A stretch of 64,000 nucleotides of DNA from a virus: UHGV virus genome UHGV-0277504. One strand, 5' to 3'. Under the pieces are notes generated by a model. That model was not told the origin of the DNA. It ran no database searches and saw nothing but the letters and a program-made list of their open reading frames with translations. The translations under genes and the position numbers were made by a program. Positions 40,438-57,424 of this stretch are shown piece by piece. Numbering within the stretch: position 1 is the stretch's first letter; each line of letters starts with the position of its first letter.

Positions 40438-40438
40438 A

Positions 40439-40696: not shown

Positions 40697-40721
40697 TTAT
40701 ATTTAACTCCTTTTTTAATTA

Positions 40722-40922
40722 CTACTGATTAGGTAAACCAGCTTCTAGACATTCATTGTATGCTCTTTCGTTATCAATTTCTGTTCTATAATAATCAATA
40801 ATTTGTCCTATTTCAAGATGTGTCATTCTATTAATTTCACTCGCTTTATATATTTCCTCATTTCTTAAACCATATTCTTTTTGTAATCCTTGTACATACT
40901 TAATTTGTTTCTTTGTAGCCAT
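40722..40922 (-). CDS. hypothetical protein
   Basis: ORF track. Confidence 0.45.
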   Translation of the reverse strand: MATKKQIKYVQGLQKEYGLRNEEIYKASEINRMTHLEIGQIIDYYRTEIDNERAYNECLEAGLPNQ

Positions 40923-40937
40923 TATAAACTAACTCCT

Positions 40938-41483
40938 TTACAAATTTAATTTTTTCATAAGTTTTTCAAAATCATTTAAACCATCTAATTCATCCATATT
41001 CTTAATATCTTGTTTTAAAATACTTAATGTTCGTTCTATTGGTTGAGCTACATAACTAAAATCTTCAACTTCTTTTAACTTCTCATAACCATATTTATAA
41101 GCACTTATTTTTTCTTCTTTGTATTTAAACCATATATCTTTATACCTATTATTTTCTTCCTTATCGATATCCTTTTTATATACTAGTTCTTTAATGATTT
41201 GTGTATAATCTAAAACTGAATCATCACTTGAAAAACTAGTTAAAGAATCATTGTTAATTTCATCAACATCTATGTTTTTTGTTATTTTTGACCAATCTTC
41301 CTTACTCAATGTTGTTGTATATTCTCTGCTTTTATCTCCCATAGAATTAGGTGGTTCTACAATATGAGCAAATCGACAATCTTTATTCATACATACCAAA
41401 TACGTTACACTTGTTGTTACACTTTCTACTTTATTACGCCCGCAATTAGGACAGTAATTATAATATCTTACCATTTTCATCAT
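40938..41483 (-). CDS. zinc-ribbon protein
   Basis: CPNCG...C..C. Confidence 0.5.
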   Translation of the reverse strand: MMKMVRYYNYCPNCGRNKVESVTTSVTYLVCMNKDCRFAHIVEPPNSMGDKSREYTTTLSKEDWSKITKNIDVDEINNDSLTSFSSDDSVLDYTQIIKELVYKKDIDKEENNRYKDIWFKYKEEKISAYKYGYEKLKEVEDFSYVAQPIERTLSILKQDIKNMDELDGLNDFEKLMKKLNL

Positions 41484-41890
41484 TCCTTTATTGTTTTAAT
41501 TATTATTACTATAACAGCTATTACAATAATTGTCAAGATAATGTATAGAAATAATATTGGATGAATAATACATAAAGATAATATTGAAAATGCACAACCA
41601 CATAATACATCATACAACAATAATTTATACCATTTAACTTTTTCTTCCTCATTAAAATAACCAAGAAAAACAATAGGTATACCAAAGACAGAAAAAAACC
41701 AAACCATAGCTGGTATGGTTAAAAAATATGATTGAATATTGAAATGATTTAATAGTAAACTAGGGAGTATTGCAATAAAGGATATTACACCAATTGTAAT
41801 GGCAAGTATAATCAAAACTAATAATACTAATATTAAAGGTAATAGTAAGTATTCCCACAAATTTTTAAATAATCTTTTAATAAAATTCAT
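41480..41890 (-). CDS. polytopic membrane protein
   Basis: ORF track. Confidence 0.5.
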   Translation of the reverse strand: MNFIKRLFKNLWEYLLLPLILVLLVLIILAITIGVISFIAILPSLLLNHFNIQSYFLTIPAMVWFFSVFGIPIVFLGYFNEEEKVKWYKLLLYDVLCGCAFSILSLCIIHPILFLYIILTIIVIAVIVIIIKTIKE

Positions 41891-41913
41891 ATTTTCCTCC
41901 TATAATGTGTATC

Positions 41914-42150
41914 TTACCCTGCATCATAATGATTATCATTTAAATCATAATCGGCATCTTTAGGTCTAACCCTATCCCAATTTACACTTGCTTTAAACTT
42001 AGGTCGAAAATCCCCATTCCCATCAGCATATATAGAAACTGTTCTTGATGCGCCTAAGTCACCTAAATACTCCATCTTATCTAGCATTGACATAAATTCA
42101 TTAACCCATCTTTCTTCCATTTCAACTTCAATTGTAAATTTCTTTTTCAT
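41914..42150 (-). CDS. hypothetical protein
   Basis: ORF track. Confidence 0.45.
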   Translation of the reverse strand: MKKKFTIEVEMEERWVNEFMSMLDKMEYLGDLGASRTVSIYADGNGDFRPKFKASVNWDRVRPKDADYDLNDNHYDAG

Positions 42151-42176
42151 AATTATTTCCTCCTATAAAATGTATG

Positions 42177-42683
42177 TTATTCCCAGAAACCCCACTCATT
42201 ACTTTCTTTTTCTTTTATGGTATAGTCATAACTAACCTCAAAATTCTCACTATCAAGAAATTCTTTTAGCCTTTTCTTCCGATTTATTAAAACATGTAGA
42301 TTTCCATTCTTAGCAATTTGCGTGTCTTGATAACTATTTAAGTACTCGTTATCCCAATTCCAATCTACAAAATACTCCTCTTTTGAATTATCATCATATG
42401 CAACTTCTACACTTGCTATATCTGCATGTTGAATTAGTCTTTTAGAACAACTAAGGCTTTCTTCATCTTCTTCATCAAATAGACCTAAAGTTTTAATCGT
42501 TTCTGGATTAATAATATCAAAATAGATACTATTAGCAGTTTGGAGCTTAGCAATGCTATTGATTGCATTTCGTCTTACACTTATATCTATATCCGCAATA
42601 ATTATATTTGCTAAATGCTTGGTTGGAATCTTGATGTACTCACAATTTTCTAAAACTAATACTATTTCTTTTACTTTTGTCAT
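42177..42683 (-). CDS. hypothetical protein
   Basis: ORF track. Confidence 0.5.
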   Translation of the reverse strand: MTKVKEIVLVLENCEYIKIPTKHLANIIIADIDISVRRNAINSIAKLQTANSIYFDIINPETIKTLGLFDEEDEESLSCSKRLIQHADIASVEVAYDDNSKEEYFVDWNWDNEYLNSYQDTQIAKNGNLHVLINRKKRLKEFLDSENFEVSYDYTIKEKESNEWGFWE

Positions 42684-42698
42684 ATTTTATTCTACTCC

Positions 42699-42860
42699 TT
42701 ATAAAATGTGTGTTTTAACGCCACTCTTTTCTTCAAAAAGTATCAATATATCTAAGTCTCCTATCGCACTAAACATTAAATTTCTAAAATGTTTCTTTTC
42801 ATCTGTTGACATATTTTCAACATCTCTCATCAGTTCTTTAAATATTTTTTCATAATCCAT
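42699..42860 (-). CDS. small ~53-aa protein
   Basis: GGAGGAG SD. Confidence 0.3.
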   Translation of the reverse strand: MDYEKIFKELMRDVENMSTDEKKHFRNLMFSAIGDLDILILFEEKSGVKTHIL

Positions 42861-42886
42861 AATTACTCCTCCTAAAAGTTTTCTAG

Positions 42887-43195
42887 TTAAGTTAAATCAA
42901 TTTTATATAACTTCTTATTAATTTTATGTTCTTCAAATTTAAAACCTACACCCTTCTCGTAAAATCCCTCTAACTTAACTTCTACTGTCTTAGGGCTTAA
43001 AACATATCTAGTGCCTAAAGAATCTTCATAACTACCTTTAGTTTCAAGTAGTATTGTTCCTTTTTTTAGTAGGGTATGACAACCATGATTAGAGTATATA
43101 TCTTCTTTAACTACTTTATATTCTTCTATTTTGTTATCTAATAACCAACTATACATACTTTCTAGCACAATAGAATCTACATTTTTAACTATCAT
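42887..43195 (-). CDS. hypothetical protein
   Basis: ORF track. Confidence 0.5.
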   Translation of the reverse strand: MIVKNVDSIVLESMYSWLLDNKIEEYKVVKEDIYSNHGCHTLLKKGTILLETKGSYEDSLGTRYVLSPKTVEVKLEGFYEKGVGFKFEEHKINKKLYKIDLT

Positions 43196-43329
43196 AACTA
43201 GCTCCTCCTATAAAATAATTCTTTTAATTAATTTTTTAATTTTATTAGTGTATCTAAATACTGTTTTAATCTATTAAAATAAATATCTTCTACATAATGT
43301 GCAGGAAGTGTCAAAGTTACTTTACTTCA

Positions 43330-43497
43330 TTACGTTATCACATATGTGCTACCTGAATGATTTAAACCTATTACCTTATCTTCAAATTTCTCAATGATTA
43401 ACAAAGGTAATTCTCCACCGATTTCATTACCTTTAAAAAATACTGATACAAAATCTCTTATTTCTAAATTATTAATATCTTTAATTTTCTCATTCAT
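43330..43497 (-). CDS. small 55-aa protein
   Basis: AAGGATG SD. Confidence 0.25.
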   Translation of the reverse strand: MNEKIKDINNLEIRDFVSVFFKGNEIGGELPLLIIEKFEDKVIGLNHSGSTYVIT

Positions 43498-43526
43498 AAC
43501 ATTTTCATCCTTATAAAATGTATGTT

Positions 43527-44036
43527 TTAAATTCTTTCAATTGTATCAGTGTTTAAATTCAAACAATATTTTACCTTTTTATCTAGTCCTCCTTTAGTGA
43601 AACCCTCGGATGTTCCTTGCCCTTGCATATAAAAATACTTAAACAGTTCATTATTGTATCGTAAGTATATATCCATACCGAAATATGTTTCAATATAAAA
43701 TGGAGGATATTCCATCACATTATCATTGTAAAAGTTATTGATATACTTACAAATAGATTCTAACTCTTGATGCATAAACTCTTCACTTGAATATAGATGT
43801 TTATACTTATCTTTATAGAGATACAGAATATCTTCTGTTGAGATACTTCCGAGTATCTCAATTGTCTCAGTAAACATTTTATTTAAATCAAAATCTTTGT
43901 TTTTAGCTTTCTTTAAAATTAAATTTCTTCTATTTTCTTTTTCTTTTAATCCATTATTAATGCTTTCTATTTGTTCATCAGTCATATTTGATATATTTTT
44001 CAATATTTTATCAAATTTGTCATCTATATTACTCAT
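43527..44036 (-). CDS. hypothetical protein
   Basis: ORF track. Confidence 0.5.
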   Translation of the reverse strand: MSNIDDKFDKILKNISNMTDEQIESINNGLKEKENRRNLILKKAKNKDFDLNKMFTETIEILGSISTEDILYLYKDKYKHLYSSEEFMHQELESICKYINNFYNDNVMEYPPFYIETYFGMDIYLRYNNELFKYFYMQGQGTSEGFTKGGLDKKVKYCLNLNTDTIERI

Positions 44037-44068
44037 ATAGTATCGCTCCTTATAAAATGATTCTTTTA

Positions 44069-44263
44069 TTACCTCATATATTTATTCCTATTTACTGTAC
44101 TTGGTTTTGGTAGCTTATCAATGTCATATTGCTTTACATCTTCATGCATATATGTTTTTAATAATTTATCATTCTTTATAATGTATTTGCTATAATCTTT
44201 ACTACTATTAAATTCTAAATGGCTTTTATCTTTTAAATTTTCTTTTTTCTTACCTTTTTCCAT
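44069..44263 (-). CDS. hypothetical basic protein
   Basis: ORF track. Confidence 0.45.
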   Translation of the reverse strand: MEKGKKKENLKDKSHLEFNSSKDYSKYIIKNDKLLKTYMHEDVKQYDIDKLPKPSTVNRNKYMR

Positions 44264-44338
44264 ATTTAAAACTCCTTTACTTTATTGTAGTCTAAGTATA
44301 TAACAAAAAACACCCAGTGTCAAGGGTGTTTTTATAAT

Positions 44339-45448
44339 TTATTCAATATATTCAATATTATCTTTAGTTTCTAATATACCTTTTGCTGTATTATATACTA
44401 ACTCAGGTTTATCTTCGACATCAAATGGAACAATGTTTTTACTTTTATCAAGTTCAAACTTTATTTTACTCATTAAGTCTTTAAAACCTACAAAATAACC
44501 TTTTCTTTCATCTAGATTATTCTTTTGATACGTGTATGTTCTATCAAAAGGTTTAACAAAGAATCTATAAGTATTTCTGCCTTTAACATAGTTAAATGAT
44601 ATTGCGTGACTTTCATAATATCTAATACTTGTTTCTTGTAAGATATAACCATTAATAGGTATTTTTGTAATACTATCAAAAGCATCTTGGAAATCAGATA
44701 AATCATATAATAAGTCATTTGTATAAGATTTAATAGTTTCTAATACATTATTTTCAGTAACAAATACGTATTTTAAATCACGAGTAGTAAAACTAGGAAT
44801 ACATATAGCTTCTTTAACATCTCTAAAATTCCCTTTAGAAGATAATATTATTTCATTTATTTTTTGTTCTCTATCAGGAACTAATCCTATAATTAAAGGT
44901 ATATTATTATATTTCAATTCTACATTAATACTCTGACTTTCTATAATATATGGTTTAACTATTTCTTTAATTTTTTGAAAACTTTTGATTTTATTCTCTA
45001 CAGAAGTTATATTATAGTTTATTTCTTTAAAAATAGAACTTAATGCTTTATGTGCTTTATAACCATCTAAAGTATAATCCAAATCATAAATACTCATTAA
45101 AAAATAAGATAAAACTTTTTTGTTTAAGCTATTATAAATTTCTAGATTTAAACTAGGATTTTTATACGAACAATCTAGTTTTAGTAAAAATTTAAAATTT
45201 TCATGTCCGTATTTACGTGTACGTTCAAGACTATACTTAGAGTAGTCACTAACTTCTACTAAATCAAAGTCCAAATCTTCTTTGATTTTATTTACTAAAC
45301 TTTTAGCAATATCATACTTGGAAAATAGGAACATATCATCTTTTTTCTTTATTGTTGGTTCTGGTTTAGACTCGAGAAATGCAAAAATTACACTAAAAAT
45401 AACTAAAAAAACTACGAAAACTATCATCATACCTAATACAATTTTCAT
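44339..45448 (-). CDS. membrane-anchored protein (N-terminal TM)
   Basis: ORF track. Confidence 0.55.
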   Translation of the reverse strand: MKIVLGMMIVFVVFLVIFSVIFAFLESKPEPTIKKKDDMFLFSKYDIAKSLVNKIKEDLDFDLVEVSDYSKYSLERTRKYGHENFKFLLKLDCSYKNPSLNLEIYNSLNKKVLSYFLMSIYDLDYTLDGYKAHKALSSIFKEINYNITSVENKIKSFQKIKEIVKPYIIESQSINVELKYNNIPLIIGLVPDREQKINEIILSSKGNFRDVKEAICIPSFTTRDLKYVFVTENNVLETIKSYTNDLLYDLSDFQDAFDSITKIPINGYILQETSIRYYESHAISFNYVKGRNTYRFFVKPFDRTYTYQKNNLDERKGYFVGFKDLMSKIKFELDKSKNIVPFDVEDKPELVYNTAKGILETKDNIEYIE

Positions 45449-45501
45449 TATTTATACACTCCTTTGTAATTATTTTCATTAGTATCTTCTCCTTTTATTT
45501 T

Positions 45502-46011
45502 TTATGAAAATACATCTTTCATTTTGTTATAAGCATCTAATAGTTTATTATATTTTTGTTTAGAAATAGTTACTTTTTCTTGTATACTTGATTTTTTAAA
45601 ATGTTCTTCATAATCTCGTTTACAAGGTCTAACAATATAATCAATTTGTTTCTTTGGAAAGAGGTGTTTTTCTACGGGTTTATTTCCTTTACCATCTCTA
45701 TTTTGAGTAATAACAGCTACGTTATCAAAATTATGGTTGTAAACAATGATACCATTGAATCCAAATATAGATATTTTTTCTGATACAAATATATCCCCTT
45801 CTCTATAATCGTCAGTTTTTAATAATTCTTTGGACTTAATGATTTTCCAAGAATTAGGTAATTTCTCGTATTTCATTCTACTAGCATTTAACTTAGTTGT
45901 ATATTTATTTAAAGTTAATCGTTTTACATAATTAGATACTAGATTTGTGGATTGGTACCCATTAATATTGTTACTTTTTATAAATTTTCCTACGTAATCA
46001 TTTAAATACAT
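45502..46011 (-). CDS. hypothetical protein
   Basis: ORF track. Confidence 0.5.
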   Translation of the reverse strand: MYLNDYVGKFIKSNNINGYQSTNLVSNYVKRLTLNKYTTKLNASRMKYEKLPNSWKIIKSKELLKTDDYREGDIFVSEKISIFGFNGIIVYNHNFDNVAVITQNRDGKGNKPVEKHLFPKKQIDYIVRPCKRDYEEHFKKSSIQEKVTISKQKYNKLLDAYNKMKDVFS

Positions 46012-46217
46012 GTTTTATTTTCTCCTTTATAAATTTTCTAAATGGTATTTGTAAGAACGTTTTACTTTGTTTAGCTCTTCTAATGCTTTATTTAAACATA
46101 CAGTATTGATAAGACCATTAGTGTCTAATTTTAAGTACTCTACATCAGTAATAATTCTTTCTAAAGAATTCACATACTCCTTTAATTGCTCTTCACTTTC
46201 CATTATATAACTCCTTT

Positions 46218-46406
46218 CTATATACCTAATGCTATTAAGATAAGGCTTACTAAGATAAGCACTACCATAATTAACATTATTAATAGAGGTATGGCTTCTT
46301 CTTTATTTCCATCTTTAAATAGTTTAATTACTTCTACTAAAACACTAAAACAAATAGCTAAGTAAAATAAAGCTAATACACTTGCTAAAATAATAAAACC
46401 TATCAC
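46218..46406 (-). CDS. small membrane protein (GTG start)
   Basis: AAGGAGG SD. Confidence 0.45.
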   Translation of the reverse strand: MIGFIILASVLALFYLAICFSVLVEVIKLFKDGNKEEAIPLLIMLIMVVLILVSLILIALGI

Positions 46407-46435
46407 TTTTACTCCTCCTTATTTATTATATATAA

Positions 46436-46464
46436 ACTATAACATAAAAAAAGACCCCTGTCAA
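46436..46464 (-). promoter_or_regulatory. promoter TTGACA-17-TATAGT whose -35 lies inside upstream terminator hairpin; heads the 46406->33645 gene train
   Basis: rc. Confidence 0.5.
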
Positions 46465-46472
46465 TAGGGGTC
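46444..46472 (-). terminator. rho-independent terminator GACCCCTATTGACAGGGGTC + T7 (minus)
   Basis: read directly. Confidence 0.65.
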
Positions 46473-46523
46473 AGTAAAAAATTTTAATACTATTTTAGAT
46501 TAACAATCGGTTCTTTATCTATA

Positions 46524-47336
46524 TTATTTATGTCTCATATCTAATATAGCATTTCCTGAATCTGGTAATGTGATAGGTGTATCACCTTTCCATTTTTCAA
46601 TAAGTTGTTTTTGTAGTAACTCATCTGTTAATGATTCTTCTACAATTTCATTTGCTTTCTTAGTACCTTTTGCTTCAATTTCTTTACGTTCAGCTTCTTC
46701 TTTAGCAATTTGTTTGTCAACTTTCTTTCTCTCTAATTCTTGATTTGCTTTAACACGACTGTCAATTGCTTTTTGAGTATTTTTATCTGCTTTTGGAGAA
46801 CTTAAAGCAATATCTTCAACAATAAAACCTTGACCTTTAAGATTTTCTTCAAGTTTATCTAAAGTAGATTTTTTAATTTCACTTGTTTTAACACCGAAAG
46901 CATCAATTACTGAGTATTTAGAAACAGATTGACGTACGTTATCTTGTACTCTTGAACGTAAATAACCTTTTTCTAGCTGTTCAATATCTGCACTACCAAA
47001 ACGATTAAATAATTCAACTGCTTTTGAGCTATCAACTTTATAGTTTACATCAATATCTAAATTAAGGTTTTTACCATCTGACGTTGATACATTCATATCT
47101 TTGTAGCTGATAGTTTGTGTTCTTGTAGGATATTCATTTACTCTGTTCATAGGTGCTACTAAGTGCCAGCCAGGACTTAGAGTATTATCCTTAACACCTT
47201 TAGGTGAGTATACAACACCTACTGTTCCTTGCGGTACTCTTTCAATACTTAGAAACGCAATTATAATTGCTACAACAATAATAATACCGCCTATAGTTAA
47301 TCCTAAACCTGCTTTTACTTTACTTTCCATAATCAT
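46524..47336 (-). CDS. SPFH/band-7 (prohibitin/stomatin-like) domain membrane protein
   Basis: N-terminal TM then ERVPQGTVGVVYSP...GWHLVAP...V.EYPTRTQT SPFH pattern; coiled-coil tail. Confidence 0.65.
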   Translation of the reverse strand: MIMESKVKAGLGLTIGGIIIVVAIIIAFLSIERVPQGTVGVVYSPKGVKDNTLSPGWHLVAPMNRVNEYPTRTQTISYKDMNVSTSDGKNLNLDIDVNYKVDSSKAVELFNRFGSADIEQLEKGYLRSRVQDNVRQSVSKYSVIDAFGVKTSEIKKSTLDKLEENLKGQGFIVEDIALSSPKADKNTQKAIDSRVKANQELERKKVDKQIAKEEAERKEIEAKGTKKANEIVEESLTDELLQKQLIEKWKGDTPITLPDSGNAILDMRHK

Positions 47337-47605
47337 TCTCCTTTTTTAATATCTTTATGAAGTTTTTTTAACTCCGATATTTCTTCTTCAAGTTCTTTAA
47401 TTTGAGATACACTCGATGTTGATGATTCTAATGCTTCTTTTTCATGGTTTTTTAATTCAATCTCATAGTCAACCATTTTTAATCTCTTATTAATTTCTCT
47501 TTTCTCTATTTCTTTCCTTACATACTCAAATAGCTTAGTTGCTCCAATAATTATACCTAGTATGATTACTACAAAAATTAAAGCAACTAATAGTAACCAA
47601 GCCAT
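47333..47605 (-). CDS. small membrane-anchored coiled-coil protein (possible SPFH partner)
   Basis: overlapping start/stop with SPFH gene. Confidence 0.45.
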   Translation of the reverse strand: MAWLLLVALIFVVIILGIIIGATKLFEYVRKEIEKREINKRLKMVDYEIELKNHEKEALESSTSSVSQIKELEEEISELKKLHKDIKKGE

Positions 47606-47673
47606 ATACCTAACCTACTTTCTTCTCTTTAACTATTCTTGTTTAAGTTTATCTTTTTGTTCAGGTGTTAACA

Positions 47674-50010
47674 TTAACTATCTCTCCAAACTTGATTTAT
47701 TTCATTATGAGTTCTTCCTGTTTCATTTTTTGCAAATTCTTCTTGCATTTTTCTTAAAGTGATAATATCTGTATTCTTAAGTTCTTTTCTAGTTAAATTA
47801 GAATAATCACGAACCCAGTAATAAAAAGCTCTTAAACTTTCGTTTTCTTGTAAAATTCTTTGAATAGGTCGTCTATCATTACCTTTAGCTAAGCTTTCTA
47901 CGATACCTCTCATGTATTTCCAGTCATTATAGTACTTAGATTTATACTTAAACATAAAACCATTTGAATCTTCAAATACATATCCTTCATGTTTAATATC
48001 TAAAGAGTTATGATTATTCTTATACCAATCATAAAACTCTACCCAAGTATCGAACATAAGAGACCATGATTTAAAAGGTACTCCGATAGATAAAGCAAAT
48101 GTATAAGTATTGGAATAACTTTCTTTTTTGAATTCTAAAGTATTATGAATAATATCTAATAAAACGATATGACTTTTATCATATTCAATGATATGTGGGT
48201 CGTTTTCAATATCAATAACTTCAAACACTAAAGTTCTATCATGTTCTTTAAGATACTTAACGATTGTTTCTACTTGAATATCATCAAACTGCTTATCAAA
48301 TAAATCTTTAAACCATAGAGCATAATCATTATTATGCTTACTTAAATGTGTTTTTGATTTACTACAAAAGACTAAATCATCAATGTTAGAATCAAAGTAA
48401 ACTAAACCTAAATAACCATTCTCTTTTTTATAACCATATAACGGAAATTTAATAATATCAGGTAATGCATCTAATTTTGTCTCAGGTCTTTCATTAATAT
48501 TGAAAAATTTATTATAACCTCTACCTAAAATTTTATTTACTAGAGTATCAATAAATAATCCTCTAGCACTTACTGTTAATTGGTTCCATCTTTTTTTATC
48601 AAATGCTTTTTTAGTAAAGTTAACAGATACTACATAATTGTACTGTTCAATGACTTTGATAGATTTTTTCTCTTCTTTAGCTAAATTTAAATATTTATCT
48701 ACTGTTAAATCTTTATCAATTGATTTTAAATAGTCTTCATTAACTAAGAACTTATGATTAAATTTTTCATTTTTAATTAATACAGGGTCGATACTATTAT
48801 TACTGTTAATCGTTACTGCTCTTAAGTAACCACCTTTTTCGACTCTACCTTCTAGATTAATAGAATTTTTTGTTAAATCTAAACGTTCACGATATAAATT
48901 TCTATGACCGTGAATCTGAATAACTGAACTATCTTTCCATTTACTGTCTACATCAAATTCATAACTACCTACACCATTAATAAGTTGATGTGTTGATACT
49001 TTATTTAAATTATCTAACATATTAGGTAAGATACCACCATGATTAATAACATAGTATTGTCCTCTATAATTAAAGTATAGAACTTGTTGTAAGTTTCTTA
49101 AAATAGCACGTACTCGTTTAGGTGTAATACCATTATCAAGGAAAGATTTTAACGTGTAAACAAAACCTCTAGCTTTAAATACATCTAAGACTAATTTAAA
49201 TAACTTACTAAAGTCATCACTCACTTTATGAAGCTCTTCATACGTATCTGTATCTAAGTGAGCATACCTACGTAAATGTCTTTCATGATTACCTTCTAAT
49301 AATTCTACATTGTCTAAGTTATGGATAAGTTCTAAATAATCAAAAGTTTCTTTAGGTTCTAAACCTCTATCAAAATAATCTCCTACAAAAATAAATAATT
49401 CATTAGGGTGGTCTACAATGTAGTTGTAACTAGCAAATTCATTTAAAGCTGTGAAACAAGAATGTACATCACCGATAACATGAATTTTATCATAATGATT
49501 TACTTCCATAAAATCTTTATCCCACTCAAGAGAACTTAATACTTCTTCAGGTTTTAATTCTTTTGCAACACTAGGAATATGTTCATGTTGTAGTCTTTCA
49601 TAAATATTCTCAATAACTTCTACAGGAACTTGTTTTAATTTTTCCCTTTGGTTATTACGTTCAATTAATGTATCTAAGTCTTCTTCTAAGGTTACTACAT
49701 AAACACGATAACCGTATACTTTAGCTAACTTCTCATATCGTTTAATTAACTTACCTGTAGAGTGTGTAGCATCAATTACAGTAAATTCACCATTACTCAT
49801 ACGATTTTCTAAAATTTCAAATAATGTTTTCCAAACTAGATTATCTTTATCTTGAGTAATCGCTATTCTACCTTCTTCATTATAGATAGGTGAACCGAAT
49901 TGTAATCTTAAAGTGTCTGGACTTAATGTGTAATTTTCTAGTCCTTTCTCTTTAATAAAAGTAGATTTACCTACACCTGGTACACCTCTCATTAATAATA
50001 ATTGTTTCAT
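47674..50010 (-). CDS. polynucleotide kinase - metallophosphoesterase - ligase fusion (bacterial Pnkp-like RNA repair enzyme)
   Basis: P-loop GVPGVGKST; calcineurin-like GDVHSC / GDYFDRG / GNHE; C-terminal nucleotidyltransferase motifs KENGYLG (I), LVFEVID (III), HEGYVFED (IV), FKYKSK (V). Confidence 0.7.
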   Translation of the reverse strand: MKQLLLMRGVPGVGKSTFIKEKGLENYTLSPDTLRLQFGSPIYNEEGRIAITQDKDNLVWKTLFEILENRMSNGEFTVIDATHSTGKLIKRYEKLAKVYGYRVYVVTLEEDLDTLIERNNQREKLKQVPVEVIENIYERLQHEHIPSVAKELKPEEVLSSLEWDKDFMEVNHYDKIHVIGDVHSCFTALNEFASYNYIVDHPNELFIFVGDYFDRGLEPKETFDYLELIHNLDNVELLEGNHERHLRRYAHLDTDTYEELHKVSDDFSKLFKLVLDVFKARGFVYTLKSFLDNGITPKRVRAILRNLQQVLYFNYRGQYYVINHGGILPNMLDNLNKVSTHQLINGVGSYEFDVDSKWKDSSVIQIHGHRNLYRERLDLTKNSINLEGRVEKGGYLRAVTINSNNSIDPVLIKNEKFNHKFLVNEDYLKSIDKDLTVDKYLNLAKEEKKSIKVIEQYNYVVSVNFTKKAFDKKRWNQLTVSARGLFIDTLVNKILGRGYNKFFNINERPETKLDALPDIIKFPLYGYKKENGYLGLVYFDSNIDDLVFCSKSKTHLSKHNNDYALWFKDLFDKQFDDIQVETIVKYLKEHDRTLVFEVIDIENDPHIIEYDKSHIVLLDIIHNTLEFKKESYSNTYTFALSIGVPFKSWSLMFDTWVEFYDWYKNNHNSLDIKHEGYVFEDSNGFMFKYKSKYYNDWKYMRGIVESLAKGNDRRPIQRILQENESLRAFYYWVRDYSNLTRKELKNTDIITLRKMQEEFAKNETGRTHNEINQVWRDS

Positions 50011-50027
50011 AATTACCTCTCCTTTTA

Positions 50028-50291
50028 TTATTTAATACTAATAAATTCTATACTGTTTAAAGGTACCCAAACATCGTCTTCTGTTGAATTACTTGCAAAA
50101 AATAGTGAAAATGTATCAGCGTCACAGTTTTTTAACAACTTAATAAGACTATCTCTCTCTTCAATTGAAACATTAATATCCATATATTTCCCACTTTTTA
50201 GAGCTACTGTGACTTTATATTGTTTTTCTTCTTTAAAATTTTCCATATTATTCATTGAAATATCTCCTTTATTTTTTGATATATACATCAT
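50028..50291 (-). CDS. hypothetical protein
   Basis: ORF track. Confidence 0.45.
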   Translation of the reverse strand: MMYISKNKGDISMNNMENFKEEKQYKVTVALKSGKYMDINVSIEERDSLIKLLKNCDADTFSLFFASNSTEDDVWVPLNSIEFISIK

Positions 50292-50616
50292 ATTTAGTGT
50301 CTAATTCTCTATGACCTGTTATGAAATAAATTTTACTTTTCTTTGATACTGTATATGTTGTTTTCTTTATATAACTTTTATTACTCTCATGTGCTTTTAC
50401 GTCAACAGAAGATACTGATGCTATTTCATTGAATTGTTCTGCTGAAATTACTGATACATTTTTATCTTTTAAAGCTACTTCTTTAGGTAAAATAATAGTT
50501 ACTCCTATTAGTAAAATACCTATAAATCCTAAAAATTCAAAACTTTTTTTTCTCTTTTTTATCCCTACGTACCATGATACTACTGTTAGAACTAAAATAA
50601 TAAAATAAAAAATCAT
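50269..50616 (-). CDS. membrane protein
   Basis: ORF track. Confidence 0.45.
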   Translation of the reverse strand: MIFYFIILVLTVVSWYVGIKKRKKSFEFLGFIGILLIGVTIILPKEVALKDKNVSVISAEQFNEIASVSSVDVKAHESNKSYIKKTTYTVSKKSKIYFITGHRELDTKYDVYIKK

Positions 50617-50669
50617 AATTTACCTCCTTTAACTTAACTATAAACTATAATAACTTTTTTGTCAAGTAA

Positions 50670-51239
50670 TTATTTAAATTCTGATAAATCTTTATGTACT
50701 TCGGTAGGTTCTAGGTAGTATTTTTTAGCTGTTTTAGTTATGCCTATTAGTTTATCATTTGTGTTATCTTTATCTACAATCAAACTATTAATTTGCTCTT
50801 GTATAATATTTTTCGTATTAGGGTTCTTTGTTTTAATTTTACTTATTTCTTTTTCATAAATTTTAATTTGAATATCATTACGTTTTTTGATTAAAGGTCT
50901 AACTTCTTTATTTAACTTACGTTTAATAAAATCACTAATATCATCTCTAGTATCCTTTATAGATTCCCAATCAGCTTCATTATCACTCATAATAGTAATA
51001 ATATTTAAGTGTTTATCAATAACAAGTTTATGCTCTTTAAATACATAAACTTCTCGACCCTTTTCTTGTTGTGTGACATAAGTAGCTTTATTTAAAGCTT
51101 TGGCTACCCACTCTTTTGCTTTTTCACGTGATGAATTTTCTACCCTCATTAAAAATCTTTCATAAGCATGGTTAGTTATATTCACATGCTTACTAAGTAT
51201 AGGTTTTTTTCTTTCCACTATATTTAGCATGTTTAACAT
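50670..51239 (-). CDS. hypothetical protein
   Basis: ORF track. Confidence 0.5.
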   Translation of the reverse strand: MLNMLNIVERKKPILSKHVNITNHAYERFLMRVENSSREKAKEWVAKALNKATYVTQQEKGREVYVFKEHKLVIDKHLNIITIMSDNEADWESIKDTRDDISDFIKRKLNKEVRPLIKKRNDIQIKIYEKEISKIKTKNPNTKNIIQEQINSLIVDKDNTNDKLIGITKTAKKYYLEPTEVHKDLSEFK

Positions 51240-51322
51240 CTCCTTATTTGTTATGTCTTAATGATACTATAATTTATATTAGATGTCAATACTTTTTATA
51301 AAAAAAGAAGTGTAGTTTTATA

Positions 51323-51646
51323 CTACACTTCATCTACTACGTTTTGTGCTTCTTTAAACATTGTATCTTCTAAGTTATAAATCTCACTTAAAGTAAATTG
51401 CAATGTGTCACTAATTCTAGATAGTGCAATTCTTTCAGTAACTTTAATATTTAATTTAGTAAAATGTTGTTTTACTAGTCCGTTATCTGTTTCTAATACC
51501 GTATCTCCATTAACTTTAATTACAAATTCGTTATTATCTTTGAGTAGTCGTAATGAACCTACATCAAAAGATTCTAACAATTTAACAATACTATTTAAAA
51601 TACTTAATTCTGATTCTTTTAATACTGATAATTTTTCATTATTCAT
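51323..51646 (-). CDS. hypothetical protein
   Basis: ORF track. Confidence 0.5.
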   Translation of the reverse strand: MNNEKLSVLKESELSILNSIVKLLESFDVGSLRLLKDNNEFVIKVNGDTVLETDNGLVKQHFTKLNIKVTERIALSRISDTLQFTLSEIYNLEDTMFKEAQNVVDEV

Positions 51647-51649
51647 ATA

Positions 51650-52150
51650 TTAATTCACTCCTTCTTTGTAATGAATTGAATAGCCTTCTACTTGAGATAA
51701 TAAGAATTCTAAATCTACAGTTGAGTCATGTTCTTTAAACTCGATTAAAAATGTATTATTTCTATCACTTTTAAATGCATGTTTGAATTTATTAATCTCA
51801 TTTTCTAAACTATAAACATCATTTTTATTTACTTTAATAACTTTACCACTCTTCAAGTTGATAACGAGTTCGGTTGGTCTTTTAATGATGTCAGCATATG
51901 TTTCTATTTCTCTCTTTTGTTTTTCGTGATACTGAATTACTAACGTTAAATCAGAACCTTTTAGACCTTCCTTATTAAAGTTAGCATTTAAGTCATTACC
52001 ATTAGATAATGTGACATGATTGTCTAGTTTTCTACTTTCTCTAATAATTAAGTCCTCATCTTGTAAATGAATAATGATACTTCCTTTACGTACTTCATAA
52101 TTATATCCATACTGGCTTAACTTATCTTCAATTAAATCTTGATACAACAT
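51650..52150 (-). CDS. hypothetical protein
   Basis: ORF track. Confidence 0.5.
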   Translation of the reverse strand: MLYQDLIEDKLSQYGYNYEVRKGSIIIHLQDEDLIIRESRKLDNHVTLSNGNDLNANFNKEGLKGSDLTLVIQYHEKQKREIETYADIIKRPTELVINLKSGKVIKVNKNDVYSLENEINKFKHAFKSDRNNTFLIEFKEHDSTVDLEFLLSQVEGYSIHYKEGVN

Positions 52151-52210
52151 TATTTTTTCAGTTCCTTTCTTATAAGAAAAACAAGAAAGGTTTATATTAA
52201 GGTTGATAAA

Positions 52211-53443
52211 CTATATGTTTACCCTTATTAATAATGGTTTACTACAAACCTCTACAAGGTTTGAGAATAACTTCTCATTCCATGCTTCTTGTTTTTCTAA
52301 ATATTTTCTTAATATATTTAAACTACCATTTAAGTCTGCATTAATTAACTTTCCTTCTTTACTCTTATACAATCCTCTTTTAACTCTTTTACCAGAGAAT
52401 GTAACTATATTCTTTTTAGAATCCCATATAGGTATTTCATCTAAATCAAGAAAACTAGATTTACTAGTATAAGATTCTTCCTGTAGAATGATATTGATTC
52501 CTTTTTCTTTACATTTATAAGTAAGTATTTGTATAAGTGTATAAAATGGAATTTGAATAAAAGTCTGTTTACTAGATTTTCTCATTGTTGTGTCTTGTTT
52601 CCACCCTTTGTTATAGCCTATGACTAAGGTATTAACTTGGTTTGAAACTAGTTGATTCACAACATAATGAGTAGACTTATGAAAGTAATCTTTTACTTTA
52701 TTCATTCTTTTCCTGTGAATACTACATAGTCTATGACTAGACTTTTGTCTATTCAATTTCCAAAGCAACTTTTTGTTTCTTGCTAATAACTTATTATAAT
52801 AAACATTCATGCTTTTAATTGGTTTACCATTAATAATAAATGGAGTAAATACGTTAGATGATACAGTCATTAAGTTATTAATTCCTAAATCTATACTAGC
52901 ATATCTACCATTATCTTTTTTCTTTTCTTTTATAAGTTTATTATACCCTATCTCAAAAACAATATGATTACCTTTAGGAATAATCCTAACAAATTGAACT
53001 TCTTCTTTAGTTAAGTTTGTTTTAATAAAAATATTTGTTTTTGATAAGTGGATATAGCCTTTACGTTTAACAAAAGAAATAGCTTTCTTTTCGTAATGTA
53101 CAATTTGTTTTCCATTCTCAGTATCTAAATATTTAGGTATTCTTGCAAAATACCCTTTCCTTCTTAAATTGAAAAAAGATTTAAAATTTTTATCTACTAA
53201 CCTTTGTGTACATTTAGATACTTTAGCAGGCAAAGCTCTATAGTCTGTATTATTAGAATGAGTAAACTGTTTATTAACATCATAATACCTTAGATACTTT
53301 TTATTTTTAAAGTAATACTGTCTTACTGCATAAAGTGTAGCATTATAAAGGTTTTTACTTAAAAAACATAAGTTATCTGCTTCTTTATATCTATTATCTT
53401 GTGTTGTTATTTGATGTTGTTCTACTCTAGTTTCATACTTCAT
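52211..53443 (-). CDS. TnpB-like (IS605 OrfB / RuvC-fold) protein without zinc-finger cysteines; no flanking IS ends or TnpA
   Basis: RuvC-I IDLGINN; EESYTSK box (normally precedes CxxC, here followed by SSF, no Cys); RuvC-III-like NADLNGSLNILRK; typical N-terminal region; ATGA-coupled 16-codon upstream ORF. Confidence 0.65.
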   Translation of the reverse strand: MKYETRVEQHQITTQDNRYKEADNLCFLSKNLYNATLYAVRQYYFKNKKYLRYYDVNKQFTHSNNTDYRALPAKVSKCTQRLVDKNFKSFFNLRRKGYFARIPKYLDTENGKQIVHYEKKAISFVKRKGYIHLSKTNIFIKTNLTKEEVQFVRIIPKGNHIVFEIGYNKLIKEKKKDNGRYASIDLGINNLMTVSSNVFTPFIINGKPIKSMNVYYNKLLARNKKLLWKLNRQKSSHRLCSIHRKRMNKVKDYFHKSTHYVVNQLVSNQVNTLVIGYNKGWKQDTTMRKSSKQTFIQIPFYTLIQILTYKCKEKGINIILQEESYTSKSSFLDLDEIPIWDSKKNIVTFSGKRVKRGLYKSKEGKLINADLNGSLNILRKYLEKQEAWNEKLFSNLVEVCSKPLLIRVNI

Positions 53444-53568
53444 TTTTCTAAATTTTTACTTTCCTTATTTAATTCAGACTTTTTTAACATAATACTTATC
53501 TCCTTTCTTATTTATAGTATAGCATAAACTAAGAAAAAAGACAAGTATTTATTTGTTTTTTTTACAGT

Positions 53569-53931
53569 TTATTTAAACTGATTTTCCACCTTTTTCTTTA
53601 TTAAATTATCTATATCAGGTTCATTAAATGATTTAATAATGTATCTACCTTTTTTGTTAAAAATAACATCAAAGAAACCATCATCTTGTAACCTAATAAC
53701 TGCTTCAATATTAAACTGCTTTAACTTCTTAAATATTTCTGTTGTCATAGGAGCCTCAAAAACAAAAACTACATCTTTATTTTTTTGTTTATTAACATGT
53801 TTTTTATTGAAGTTTGTAATACTACCATAACATAATTTATTTTTCTTGTCAATACCTTTAAAGTATTTTTTCATAGAATCATTTAAGTATGGTTCTTCTT
53901 GTTTTTTATACGGAAATGCTACTATAATCAT
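53569..53931 (-). CDS. hypothetical protein
   Basis: ORF track. Confidence 0.5.
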   Translation of the reverse strand: MIIVAFPYKKQEEPYLNDSMKKYFKGIDKKNKLCYGSITNFNKKHVNKQKNKDVVFVFEAPMTTEIFKKLKQFNIEAVIRLQDDGFFDVIFNKKGRYIIKSFNEPDIDNLIKKKVENQFK

Positions 53932-54209
53932 CTTCTATATCCTTTCAAATATAATATCTTATGAAAATACTCTATTGCTCTGTGTGCTTTAGCTATTGTT
54001 GTAGCGTACTCTAATAATTCATTTTCTGATAGAGGTTTTTCTGTATCTCTTTTTATATCTGCTACTAAGTTTACTTTATCTAAACCATCATCATAAATAA
54101 CAGGAGCATATTCTAAATCACAATCTACTGTAGCTATTATTTGCTCTCCTGCTTTTTCTACTTTCAATCTAAACTCTCTATAGTAATCTTCAAACACAAC
54201 TTCACTCAT
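53928..54209 (-). CDS. hypothetical protein
   Basis: ORF track. Confidence 0.45.
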   Translation of the reverse strand: MSEVVFEDYYREFRLKVEKAGEQIIATVDCDLEYAPVIYDDGLDKVNLVADIKRDTEKPLSENELLEYATTIAKAHRAIEYFHKILYLKGYRR

Positions 54210-54384
54210 CTGTATACCTTCTCCTTAAATCAATATATCCTGACTTTTCTCTAATATGTTTTAATCGTTGTAGTTTCTGTTCTCTTGTCAGGTTAGACCT
54301 ATACGGTTCTGATTTTTTGTTTTTAAATCTTTTTTTAGTATTCGTATCTTTACTTTCTTGTTGCATCTTCTCTAAGAAATTCAT
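54202..54384 (-). CDS. small basic protein
   Basis: ORF track. Confidence 0.4.
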   Translation of the reverse strand: MNFLEKMQQESKDTNTKKRFKNKKSEPYRSNLTREQKLQRLKHIREKSGYIDLRRRYTDE

Positions 54385-54412
54385 AACAAACCTCCTCTTT
54401 TGTTATAGTAAC

Positions 54413-54452
54413 ATAAAAGCAAAAAACAGTCAATACTTTTTAGTATCGACTG
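54413..54452 (-). terminator. rho-independent terminator (minus)
   Basis: CAGTCGATACT...AGTATTGACTG + T-tract on minus. Confidence 0.5.
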
Positions 54453-54520
54453 CTTAAAAAAAGGATAATTCCTATAGCTATGAATATAACTACTACCAAA
54501 AAACTCACGGTATCCCTCCT

Positions 54521-54904
54521 CTATTTTACTTTTTCTCCTTTAGGTACGAATCTATATATGTGTACTCGGTTACCGTCATCATCTTTTGAGTATACTCTAA
54601 TGAGTGTAAATTCTTTAGCTTCTTTAAATCTACTAGTTTTAAACACGGTTGTATCTACACTATTATCTGTTGTTCTCCCAGGAATATACGTAGGTAAGTC
54701 TTCTGTGAAATAGACTTTATTGTCTTTAATATGGTCTTTTGTGAAATCACCTATTTCTTCTACTTTCTCTCCTTTAACTTCTGAAGACTGTTTTGTAAAG
54801 TGTTCCGTATCTTTACCTTGAATGTTAATTGTTGTAATGTAAATACTCATAGAAAGAATTAAAATAATAATAGCTACAATATAACCTTTATTTAATCTAT
54901 CCAT
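54521..54904 (-). CDS. membrane-anchored protein
   Basis: ORF track. Confidence 0.5.
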   Translation of the reverse strand: MDRLNKGYIVAIIILILSMSIYITTINIQGKDTEHFTKQSSEVKGEKVEEIGDFTKDHIKDNKVYFTEDLPTYIPGRTTDNSVDTTVFKTSRFKEAKEFTLIRVYSKDDDGNRVHIYRFVPKGEKVK

Positions 54905-54968
54905 TTCTACTTATTCCCTTCTATAATAAAATAGCTTTCTCTTATGTAATATAAGAGAAAGCACAAAC

Positions 54969-55670
54969 TTAAATACTATTCATAATAAATACACATTTAT
55001 CTACAAGAGGACAATAAACCATACTCTCAGAATCATCTAACATATCTTTTAATTTAAGATAATGCTTAAGATAACTATCAGGATTAGCTAAATCTTTATA
55101 CCTAACTAAGCAATCATCAATTTTAAGTTCTATATCTTTTTTACTTACGATTTCTAATTGAGTTACTTCTTCACTAGAAGTTAATATATAACCTTTCTCT
55201 ATAACTTCATCTGATACATCTTCAACTTTTACATTATTTTTAATATCTTCCACTAGTTGATACTGGTCGTAATTGTAATCATCAGATTTAATTCTAAATA
55301 AAGGTTCTATTACCCTAGCTCTTTCAAGAATACTAATTGGTGCACTGTTTTTATGTTTATTATATAGGTACTCATTTTCTGTTATTCTTTCTTTTGATAA
55401 CCCAATATAATGACCTGTTGGTGTTCCAAATTTCTCTTCTAAATCTGGAGTTACAGTAGCAATCATAAGCGTATCATAATTAACTTCAGTACCTATTACT
55501 TTGTAATTACTTACTACATTTTCTAAACCTTCTAAATCTAATAAGGAATGTTTAAGCTCTTCTAATGTATAACCTGATTCTATATTCTTTATTTGTGTAT
55601 TTTCTTCATTATTAGGAGAACCATAATGTTCTTTATTCCTCATCTCATTTAATTTATCTGAAAAACTCAT
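54969..55670 (-). CDS. hypothetical protein
   Basis: ORF track. Confidence 0.5.
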   Translation of the reverse strand: MSFSDKLNEMRNKEHYGSPNNEENTQIKNIESGYTLEELKHSLLDLEGLENVVSNYKVIGTEVNYDTLMIATVTPDLEEKFGTPTGHYIGLSKERITENEYLYNKHKNSAPISILERARVIEPLFRIKSDDYNYDQYQLVEDIKNNVKVEDVSDEVIEKGYILTSSEEVTQLEIVSKKDIELKIDDCLVRYKDLANPDSYLKHYLKLKDMLDDSESMVYCPLVDKCVFIMNSI

Positions 55671-55702
55671 ATGTTACACACCTACAATTCTACTACAATT
55701 TC

Positions 55703-56143
55703 TTATTCCTCTTGTTCATCATTAAGTGCTTCTTCTTTAGAACCTGTTTTTCTCTCTACATTATATAAGTCTAAAATATAGTACAAACCATTTTTATGAA
55801 TATTATACTTCTTATAAATATCTTCTACATTCATAAAATGATAATCTTTGATAAGTTGTTTTGTTTTTTCTACATCATTTAATACGTGAGCTACTCTCTC
55901 AGAAACTCTAGATTTCTTGTTTCTTTTCTCTACTTTATAACTGTTAATTACTGAGTAAATCATACCTGTACTTACTTTAACTGCTTTTGAGATTTCTTTA
56001 AACGGTGCTCCTTCTTCATATAAAGTAACGATTTGTTGCTCTTTAATTGTGTTGAATCTTTTATCTTTCTTTAAAGGTGTAAATTCTTTTTTATTTTCTG
56101 TACCTAAAATCTTCTCTTCTTCTTTATTTAATGAAATAAACAT
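55703..56143 (-). CDS. HTH-containing protein (possible regulator or terminase small-subunit-like)
   Basis: EQQIVTLYEEGAPFKEISKAVKVSTGMIYSVIN HTH-like. Confidence 0.45.
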   Translation of the reverse strand: MFISLNKEEEKILGTENKKEFTPLKKDKRFNTIKEQQIVTLYEEGAPFKEISKAVKVSTGMIYSVINSYKVEKRNKKSRVSERVAHVLNDVEKTKQLIKDYHFMNVEDIYKKYNIHKNGLYYILDLYNVERKTGSKEEALNDEQEE

Positions 56144-56185
56144 ATAAAAAACTCCTTTTGTTTTGATACTTATATTATACTACAC

Positions 56186-56674
56186 TTAATCATTATTGTC
56201 AATATCTTTTACTAAAGTTAACTCACTTTCTTTAAATACCTTATCGTATTCACCTGTTAGCTTATAAAAGTAACTGTTGTTATCAGTTAGTACTTCTGTA
56301 ATCCTAGCAACATCTTTACTTGAATTTTCATTTAATAGATTAAATCGTTCATACTCTACAATATCATTAACTTTAAATTTATTGTCTGTTACATTAAATT
56401 CTTCATCTAAGTAAACATTAAATGTAATAAGAGCATTAATAGAAATATTATAAGGCACCCAATACCTATTATAAAAAGTTGTTTCTTTTCTAATATCTCT
56501 TGATATTTCTGTCATCTGGTGTCTACCAGGATTAAGTCTTACAAGGATTGTTCCTTGGTCTCCTTGTTCTAGTCTTAATACTTTACCATCTACTAGGTAA
56601 TGAATAATATCTGTTAAATTTTCAATTGGTAGTGCTTCTTTTACTGGTTGTATATTAATCGGATTGACTTCCAT
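56186..56674 (-). CDS. hypothetical protein
   Basis: ORF track. Confidence 0.5.
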   Translation of the reverse strand: MEVNPINIQPVKEALPIENLTDIIHYLVDGKVLRLEQGDQGTILVRLNPGRHQMTEISRDIRKETTFYNRYWVPYNISINALITFNVYLDEEFNVTDNKFKVNDIVEYERFNLLNENSSKDVARITEVLTDNNSYFYKLTGEYDKVFKESELTLVKDIDNND

Positions 56675-56698
56675 AATTTACCTCACTCACTTTACACA

Positions 56699-57424
56699 TT
56701 AAATAGATATTCCAGCTTGTTCCATAGCTTCTTTAAATTTTTTGTCTTCTTCATTTAAATCTAGACTTTGATAGAATTCTTTTTCCTTTTCTTCTAATCT
56801 TTGTAGTACTTGTTCGTGTTGCTCCTCAGGAATAAATTCTAATAATACTTCTGTCATAGCTGATTCTCTAGCTGTTTGTTTAAGCATAAGCTCTTTTAAC
56901 CCAATATAACTTAAGCCTTTTAATTCCCCATTAGTTATCTTATTCTTTGTTTCTATTGCTCTTATCATTAAAGCTGGGTCTAATGTATCTACCCATTTTA
57001 AACCTTCTCTACCTTTATAAATAATTTCATCTAATATCTGAGCGTCATTATATATTTTCTCAGTATAACTTTTAGCTTCTTCAAAACTAGGTGCAATTTC
57101 TTGACCTTTATAACTCACCTCTTTATCAGATATATCATCTACAGAGGTTTTCTTTCTCTTATCTATAAGCTCTCCTAAATCCCAACCATTTTGAATAGCT
57201 TCTCTTCTTTTGTTTTTATATCTTGATAAAGATGGTTTAGATATGTCTAAGTCATACTCTTTACATATATCTATAATATCATCGAAACTCATATCTTCAT
57301 CTAAAGCATTATCTACTTTAGTTCTTAATAATTTATTGTGATATAGCTTAGAGAGTATACTCTCTTTTTTTTCAACAACTTTAATAGTGTCTTTTTTATT
57401 TTTTAAATTTTTCTTTCTAGCCAT
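56699..57424 (-). CDS. hypothetical basic/HTH-like protein
   Basis: ORF track. Confidence 0.5.
   Translation of the reverse strand: MARKKNLKNKKDTIKVVEKKESILSKLYHNKLLRTKVDNALDEDMSFDDIIDICKEYDLDISKPSLSRYKNKRREAIQNGWDLGELIDKRKKTSVDDISDKEVSYKGQEIAPSFEEAKSYTEKIYNDAQILDEIIYKGREGLKWVDTLDPALMIRAIETKNKITNGELKGLSYIGLKELMLKQTARESAMTEVLLEFIPEEQHEQVLQRLEEKEKEFYQSLDLNEEDKKFKEAMEQAGISI

Follow-up and report, generated by a model that had tools for sequence, protein, structure and literature searches.

A single-chain RNA repair enzyme predicted in a Staphylococcus epidermidis phage, with Pnkp-type healing modules and a ligase domain closest to fungal Trl1

The stretch of DNA under study, 64,000 nucleotides of the virus genome UHGV-0277504 and called the window hereafter, comes from a myophage of Staphylococcus epidermidis in the genus Sepunavirus (Herelleviridae). 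On its minus strand an open reading frame (ORF) for a protein of 778 amino acids (aa), previously claimed from the letters alone, was recovered from the ORF listing with an ATG start codon and is referred to here as the repair gene (coordinates of all features in Table 1). The gene is already present in databases, where it is annotated only in part: counterparts in other Sepunavirus phages (phiIPLA-C1C, phiIBB-SEP1, Terranova and others; 98-99.7% amino-acid identity) are labelled variously as 'RNA ligase', 'polynucleotide kinase' or 'hypothetical protein', and a full-length match to phrog_8238, 'RNA ligase', was obtained from PHROGs at 1168 bits. The AlphaFold2 (AF2) model of the protein was confident, with a predicted local distance difference test score (pLDDT) of 93.4 and a predicted template modelling score (pTM) of 0.85.

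The original prediction had read the protein as a kinase, a metallophosphoesterase and a ligase, and this order was borne out by Pfam. Matches well over the gathering thresholds were obtained for AAA_33 at residues 4-138 (5e-21), Metallophos at residues 175-377 (6e-13) and RNA_lig_T4_1 (PF09511) at residues 482-693 (1.3e-37; 130.3 bits against a gathering cutoff of 28.3), the last of which gave profile support to a ligase domain proposed from motifs. All eight motifs quoted for the three domains were located in the protein, namely GVPGVGKST (residues 9-17) in the kinase, GDVHSC (180-185), GDYFDRG (210-216) and GNHE (240-243) in the phosphoesterase, and KENGYLG (529-535), LVFEVID (594-600), HEGYVFED (674-681) and FKYKSK (687-692) in the ligase. 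On profile and motif grounds, the kinase is confirmed as a P-loop 5'-kinase, the phosphoesterase as a binuclear metallophosphoesterase and the ligase as a lysine-adenylyltransferase RNA ligase. The healing half is Pnkp-like, its nearest structures among the matches listed being CthPnk (4gp6) and the CthPnkp phosphatase (4j6o).

Of the 765 relatives obtained in a homologue search, almost every one had these three Pfam domains, and so did each of 22 diverse homologues scanned. Conservation was followed in two alignments, with 22 and 106 full-length homologues, and by tabulating 223 full-length homologues (identity ~38-72%), to which all counts out of 223 below refer. The kinase residues K15, D32, R35 and R122 are kept in at least 219 of these sequences, the phosphoesterase residues D181, D211, N241, H242, H324 and H369 are invariant, and K529, E597, E675, K688 and K690 of the ligase are present in all 223. 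Thus the lysine of KENGYLG (K529), the conservation of which had been put forward as a check on the ligase domain, is invariant, and Glu530 beside it is variable, as expected of a KxNG motif.

The ligase region was compared with known structures by a profile (A2; residues 426-778, 18 homologues, 331 positions), which was searched against all PDB sequences. The best match was the ligase domain of Candida glabrata Trl1 (Trl1-LIG) at 2.2e-30, covering profile positions 26-327 of 331; the Chaetomium Trl1-LIG was matched at ~1e-21, and T4 Rnl1 at ~4e-10 over the adenylyltransferase core only (positions 55-268). The ranking obtained with Foldseek for the AF2 model agreed with that of the profile, Trl1-LIG being matched at E = 7e-15 with a target template modelling score (TMt) of 0.68 over 377 of 383 target residues, and T4 Rnl1 with a TMt of 0.56. 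By profile and by fold, the closest relatives of the phage ligase are the fungal Trl1 ligase domains (the 'Rnl6' clade; PDB 6N67, 6N0T, 9QW7 and 8RBJ), within the Rnl1 superfamily, to which the domain is assigned by PF09511 above its cutoff, by motifs I, III, IV and V and by the invariant motif I lysine. Shared with Trl1-LIG are an Rnl1-like N-subdomain, these four motifs, an Asn in motif I, a His nine residues past the motif III Glu, a basic-x-x-Arg element right behind motif V and a terminal 'II-x-LR-N/x-F' motif.

In a published comparison, ~252 residues of Trl1 and T4 Rnl1 were aligned, corresponding to the common adenylyltransferase domain, and an all-helical C-domain was given as the defining feature of the Rnl6 clade (PMC6379707). 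Since the alignment of Trl1 with T4 Rnl1 is limited to that length, the extra ~65 residues over which the phage ligase aligns with Trl1 match the Trl1 C-domain in size. The C-domain of the phage protein is not a tRNA-binding domain of the T4 Rnl1 type and is likely, though not proven, to be homologous to that of Trl1; when the C-terminal region alone was compared by hhalign with two Trl1 C-terminal segments, P = 3.9e-4 was obtained. Outside the ligase, the phage protein and Trl1 differ. The ligase is N-terminal in fungal Trl1 but C-terminal in the phage protein, the GTP-dependent kinase (KIN) and 2H cyclic phosphodiesterase (CPD) of the fungal enzyme stand against a Pnkp-type kinase and a binuclear metallophosphoesterase, and the phage enzyme is hosted by a bacterial virus without tRNA splicing and without Tpt1. 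The LIG-KIN-CPD order and the Tpt1-dependent pathway of the fungal and plant Trl1 holoenzyme are accordingly not matched.

The resemblance extends to the residues by which Trl1 is taken to bind the RNA 2'-phosphate. In Chaetomium Trl1, N150, H227, R334 and R337 bind a sulfate that was taken as a mimic of the RNA 2'-phosphate, and these residues were termed unique to the Trl1 clade (PMC6379707). Mutants of H227, R334 or R337 adenylylate RNA 60- to 420-fold more slowly, and the His of this triad lies nine residues past the motif III Glu (PMC11404444); the structure of RNA-bound Trl1 agrees with a 2'-phosphate pocket (PMC12440814). In the alignment of the phage protein with Trl1, these positions are taken by N531 (in the motif I KxNG), H606 (nine residues past E597) and K698-x-x-R701 (corresponding to R334-x-x-R337). 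Across the homologues, N531 is kept in 221 of 223, H606 in 223 and R701 in 221, and position 698 is Lys in 220 and Arg in 3. In an hhalign alignment with T4 Rnl1, which ends past motif V and before R701, Asp, Ile and His stood opposite N531, H606 and K698, respectively. On these alignments, the phage family has a Trl1-specific feature that T4 Rnl1 lacks.

The gene product is considered, with good probability, to be an autonomous, Hen1-independent heal-and-seal RNA repair enzyme, in which Pnkp-type healing modules and a Trl1-LIG or 'Rnl6' sealing module are united in one polypeptide. The proposed reaction would start from RNA cut by a metal-independent ribonuclease, with ends that bear a 2',3'-cyclic phosphate and a 5'-OH. 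The 5'-OH would be turned into a 5'-phosphate by the P-loop kinase (K15, D32, R35, R122), and the cyclic phosphate would be opened by the metallophosphoesterase (D181/H183/D211/N241/H242/H324/H369) to a 3'-OH,2'-phosphate end, from which the phosphate is then probably stripped off. Subsequently, the ligase would be adenylylated at K529, adenosine monophosphate would be passed to the 5'-phosphate (AppRNA), and the break would be sealed, the 3' end being held by the Trl1-like basic pocket (N531, H606, K698, R701). A Hen1 activator would be unnecessary because a Trl1-type ligase is active on its own. The substrate is plausibly a tRNA, or another RNA that is essential, after cleavage by a defence nuclease of the host; the phage enzyme would restore it by analogy with T4 Pnkp and Rnl1, which act against PrrC. 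In T4, however, two polypeptides are used instead of one, and the phosphatase of T4 Pnkp is a DxDxT acylphosphatase instead of a binuclear metalloenzyme.

Several observations weigh against this reading. No biochemical study or measured activity of any family member was found in the literature searched, and we know of no host nuclease target in Staphylococcus. No tRNA genes were found in the window. Many copies of the family are chromosomal in bacteria, so that the role would not be limited to phage counter-defence. The first basic residue of the pocket is Lys in the phage family and Arg in fungi. The tests made on the C-terminal region alone were weaker, for which reason homology of the C-domain is rated as likely only: as a profile against PDB sequences the region gave E ~3, though with a colinear and correctly placed alignment, and no Foldseek match was returned for the isolated C-domain model.

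The name 'bacterial Pnkp-like', under which the enzyme was originally predicted, holds for the domain order and for the kinase and phosphatase modules, which are closest to those of Clostridium thermocellum Pnkp, but not for the whole protein or its ligase. That the protein is a bacterial Pnkp of the Pnkp/Hen1 system, whose Hen1 neighbour has merely been lost, is scarcely credible. The shared domain order, the CthPnkp-like healing modules and a weak, partial match to the Pnkp equivalog model TIGR04075 (58.7 bits, residues 4-250 only) speak for it, but the cutoff of this model is 750 bits, and the Pnkp proteins used as positive controls, two weak matches from the genome scan in Terracidiphilus (L059) and Flammeovirga (L084), reached 1440 and 1445 bits, respectively. 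PF16542 (PNKP_ligase), the Rnl4 ligase of Clostridium thermocellum Pnkp, was matched by the controls at ~1e-181 and was not matched by the phage protein, with its PF09511 ligase, even at E<=1. No Rnl4 chains (CthPnkp-C or Hen1-N) were returned at E<=10 when the ligase-region profile was searched against PDB sequences, and no Pnkp-type ligase chain was among the matches listed in the fold searches. At the Flammeovirga control locus Hen1 was found directly upstream of Pnkp (TIGR04074, 698 bits), whereas no Hen1 gene was found across 54 loci homologous to that of the repair gene or in the window flanks, the latter in keeping with the earlier remark that no Hen1-like methyltransferase is adjacent. 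A bacterial Pnkp identity of the ligase domain was ruled out by these tests of TIGR04075, PF16542 and the Hen1 neighbour. The phage protein differs from the Pnkp/Hen1 system in that a Hen1 partner is absent and none is expected to be needed; as a single chain without partner genes it also differs from Capnocytophaga gingivalis Pnkp1-Rnl-Hen1 (PDB 4XRP), a three-protein heterohexamer dependent on Hen1 (PMC4411300). Very improbable, too, is a function other than RNA repair, whether degradation of immune cyclic nucleotides, a structural role like that of T4 Rnl1 (gp63) in tail-fibre attachment, or processing of DNA ends. PHROG 562, 'RNA ligase and tail fiber protein attachment catalyst', was indeed matched at 2.5e-23, calcineurin-like phosphodiesterases have been proposed as phage counter-signal enzymes (PMC7824862), and CthPnkp acts on DNA ends too (PMC1920235). 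However, an obligate fusion of three modules with all catalytic residues conserved in 223 sequences is what a heal-and-seal enzyme predicts, and many of these sequences sit in non-phage bacterial chromosomes, with many such hosts lacking tail fibres.

For the autonomous heal-and-seal enzyme preferred here, two courses of the 3'-end chemistry were weighed. A little short of an even chance is given to the course in which the phosphate is fully removed, ordinary 3'-OH,2'-OH and 5'-phosphate ends are sealed, and the basic pocket binds some other RNA phosphate. In wild-type CthPnkp, the cyclic phosphate is converted to a 2'-phosphomonoester intermediate, the phosphate of which is then removed, and the product is sealed by T4 Rnl1, not by Trl1; in the H189D mutant the monoesterase is abolished, the reaction halts at the 2'-phosphate, and the product feeds yeast Trl1 (PMC1920235). 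The phage enzyme keeps the equivalent His183 (nucleotides 49462-49464) and the rest of the phosphomonoesterase site, including R215 and H242, which favours full removal, as does the absence of Tpt1 from these phages. Left unexplained in this case is why residues specific to 2'-phosphate ligases stay invariant in 223 divergent sequences, and T4 Rnl1 itself differs at the pocket positions that align. Tentatively, a second course is regarded as possible, in which the ligase needs or strongly prefers a 3'-OH,2'-phosphate end and captures the 2'-phosphomonoester in cis, the resulting 2'-phosphate,3'-5' junction being cleared by the enzyme's own phosphomonoesterase or by the host. Retention of the Trl1 pocket favours such capture of the intermediate: its residues enforce 2'-phosphate specificity in Trl1 (PMC11404444; PMC12440814), and the first three of them are missing from T4 Rnl1, in an alignment that stops short of the fourth. 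Pnkp-type phosphoesterases, moreover, proceed by way of the 2'-phosphate, the single H189D substitution suffices to divert CthPnkp to the yeast pathway, and Gln occupies the position of this His in 33 of the 223 natural family members. These Gln-bearing homologues, judged by that residue, could form a natural subgroup of cyclic-phosphodiesterase-only enzymes. Against dependence on the 2'-phosphate stand the intact phosphomonoesterase set, which in CthPnkp feeds T4 Rnl1 and not Trl1, and the replacement of the first pocket Arg by Lys in 220 of 223 sequences. In yeast Trl1, the first Arg of R-x-x-R is dispensable in vivo and an R-to-K change at the second is lethal (PMC11404444); plant Trl1, without both arginines, still needs the 2'-phosphate, and CtTrl1 prefers it without strictly requiring it (PMC12440814), so that the pocket residues are not fully predictive of a 2'-phosphate requirement. 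Also against it, Staphylococcus phages gave no sign of Tpt1/KptA (none of the 98 phage records returned by tblastn with E. coli KptA was staphylococcal), nor was it recurrent near the gene in the 54 loci, and a junction 2'-phosphate would therefore need another route of removal. A phage-encoded Tpt1/KptA partner for the repair gene was unsupported by both tblastn and neighbourhood comparison; the kptA of phiCD211 has no RNA ligase next to it, and the record of Bacillus phage C30-3 is unannotated. The remaining probability falls to mixed or other behaviour.

The distribution of the family was determined with the ligase-region profile, by which 903 clusters (50% identity) were found at E<=1e-30, the best-scoring members being mostly ~710-790 aa long with the ligase C-terminal. 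The family is large and extends over phages of Bacillota, prophages and bacteria, among them many from gut and soil. Phage homologues were found in staphylococcal Twortvirinae and large siphoviruses, SPbeta-like Bacillus phages and prophages, Brochothrix A9, Lactobacillus myophages and Fusobacterium phage FNU2, and homologues on chromosomes or in metagenome-assembled genomes in Bacillus, Kurthia, Thermoactinomyces, Lachnospiraceae, Veillonella, Phascolarctobacterium, Succinimonas, Helicobacter and others. The Bacillus halotolerans copy (GCA_016767295.1; L002) lies in an SPbeta-like prophage with an arbitrium AimR/AimP module, and nearby genes encode DndB-like, Gad1, ATP-dependent DNA ligase and SRAP proteins, so that the region looks like a conflict-related accessory region.

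Homologues of unusual length were also encountered. Longer ones carry an additional 250-330 residues (P0040 / P0127, 1001 aa; an ORF of 1112 aa at positions 6001-9339 of locus L056, Helicobacter sp. CLO-3); in P0040, NUMOD1/NUMOD4 and related homing-endonuclease-type Pfam domains were found, which suggests that a mobile element was inserted into the repair gene or that a gene fusion took place there. In Staphylococcus phage Remus (Silviavirus; NC_022090; positions 3033-4475 of locus L089), the homologue bears the annotation 'RNA ligase' with a length of 480 aa, matches in the ligase region only and has an annotated coding sequence too short for a kinase, followed by two HNH endonuclease genes. 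Phages Stau2 and qdsa001 match to the last ~100 residues only. From these three phages it seems that some staphylococcal myophages have versions that are truncated, split or decaying.

In the window, a near-consensus promoter and an intrinsic-terminator-like hairpin bracket five minus-strand ORFs, that is, two small ORFs, the repair gene, a membrane protein and a Band_7 protein (Table 1). The second small ORF lies 17 nucleotides from the repair gene, neither of the two small ORFs gave a Pfam match, and the coding regions of the membrane protein and the Band_7 protein overlap by 4 nucleotides. From this arrangement the block is probably a putative operon with co-transcribed ORFs, proposed as an inference since promoter-like sites in total were not over shuffled expectation; the single promoter match is suggestive only. 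Across the 54 loci, taken from many lineages and compared by all-against-all BLAST clustering, no recurrent neighbour gene was found; the clustering yielded just antisense shadow ORFs and synteny confined to particular lineages. A Band_7 homologue (29% identity, 1e-31) adjoins the repair-gene homologue in convergent orientation in Thermoactinomyces (positions 10323-11225 of locus L003), but in neither Silviavirus Remus nor the SPbeta-like prophage does Band_7 adjoin the repair gene; the link is unproven and possibly a coincidence.

Table 1. Position and properties of the repair gene, its domains and the neighbouring features in the window
Feature	Coordinates	Strand	Properties	Basis
Repair gene	47674-50010	minus	778 aa; ATG start; stop codon 47674-47676	ORF listing
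P-loop polynucleotide 5'-kinase domain (N-terminal)	49516-50010	minus	~aa 1-165; K15, D32, R35, R122 conserved	
Binuclear metallophosphoesterase domain (central)	48766-49503	minus	~aa 170-415; key residues D181, H183, D211, D214, R215, N241, H242, H324, H369	
RNA ligase adenylyltransferase domain	47941-48702	minus	~aa 437-690; motif I K529-x-N531-G, motif III E597, H606, motif IV E675-G, motif V K688-x-K690	
C-terminal all-helical domain	47677-47940	minus	aa 691-778; W697-K698-x-x-R701 right behind motif V; 'IITLR' motif (R753)	
Sigma-70-like promoter, near consensus	50637-50665	minus	TTGACA-17-TATAGT, 11/12 match, intergenic	Consensus scan
Two small overlapping ORFs, upstream	50028-50616	minus	115 aa (membrane-like sequence) and 87 aa	ORF list; equivalents annotated in Terranova
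Membrane protein, downstream	47333-47605	minus	90 aa	ORF list
SPFH/Band_7 protein, downstream	46524-47336	minus	270 aa	PF01145 2.4e-33; Terranova 'HflC membrane protease regulator'
Intrinsic-terminator-like hairpin with T-run	46453-46472	minus		Terminator scan; terminator annotated at equivalent Terranova place

Elsewhere in the window, a TnpB / IS605 OrfB-like ORF of 410 aa was found on the minus strand at 52211-53443 (PF01385 1.9e-22; Cas12f1-like TNB domain 3.8e-10), which is labelled 'transposase' in phages BE04, Terranova and Quidividi. Phage phiIPLA-C1C covers 93% of window positions 40000-60000 in two pieces, and the TnpB-like ORF may be absent there, which would mean a mobile insertion varying among near-identical phages. 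GC skew and AT skew switch sign near 22 kb (~21000-23000), positive before and negative after, which fits a change of the main coding strand between two divergent gene blocks.

Textbook designs of RNA repair are T4 Pnkp with Rnl1, bacterial Pnkp/Hen1 and fungal or plant Trl1. The phage protein mixes these designs, Pnkp-type healing and Trl1-type sealing being combined in one Hen1-independent chain. The three activities and the heal-and-seal logic as such are known already, and RNA ligase fusions with kinases and phosphoesterases were reportedly surveyed by Burroughs & Aravind in 2016 (NAR 44:8525), where the kinase-phosphatase-ligase architecture may already be listed. In the literature searched, 'Rnl6' or Trl1-type ligases were treated for fungi, kinetoplastids and plants only, and no characterisation of a phage or bacterial family protein was found under Rnl6, Twort RNA ligase or staphylococcal tRNA repair. 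New as far as found are the pairing of healing modules of the Pnkp type with a Hen1-independent sealing module of the Trl1 type, and the presence of the Trl1 2'-phosphate pocket in prokaryotes. A one-protein heal-and-seal enzyme could serve as an RNA-ligation reagent.

It is further entertained, as a possibility somewhat on the doubtful side, that the family represents a branch of Trl1-type (Rnl6) ligases among prokaryotes, in which a His-Lys-Arg pocket serves to seal the 3'-OH,2'-phosphate ends made by the enzyme's own phosphoesterase. If so, yeast-style RNA repair chemistry would be at work in bacteria and in bacterial viruses, a descent of the eukaryotic tRNA-splicing ligase from phages or bacteria would be indicated, and prokaryotic relatives would be usable for its study. 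RNA junctions with a 2'-phosphate would then also have a natural source in the family, and with them the widespread but unexplained bacterial Tpt1/KptA would have its missing substrate. Should the pocket be functional, the old question of which substrate bacterial Tpt1 has could be put to the test, and ligation dependent on the 2'-phosphate would no longer be a fungal and plant speciality, which bears on the case for antifungals directed at Trl1. For the Sepunaviruses themselves, candidates for phage therapy against S. epidermidis, the repair gene would imply staphylococcal RNA-cleaving defences that these phages must undo.

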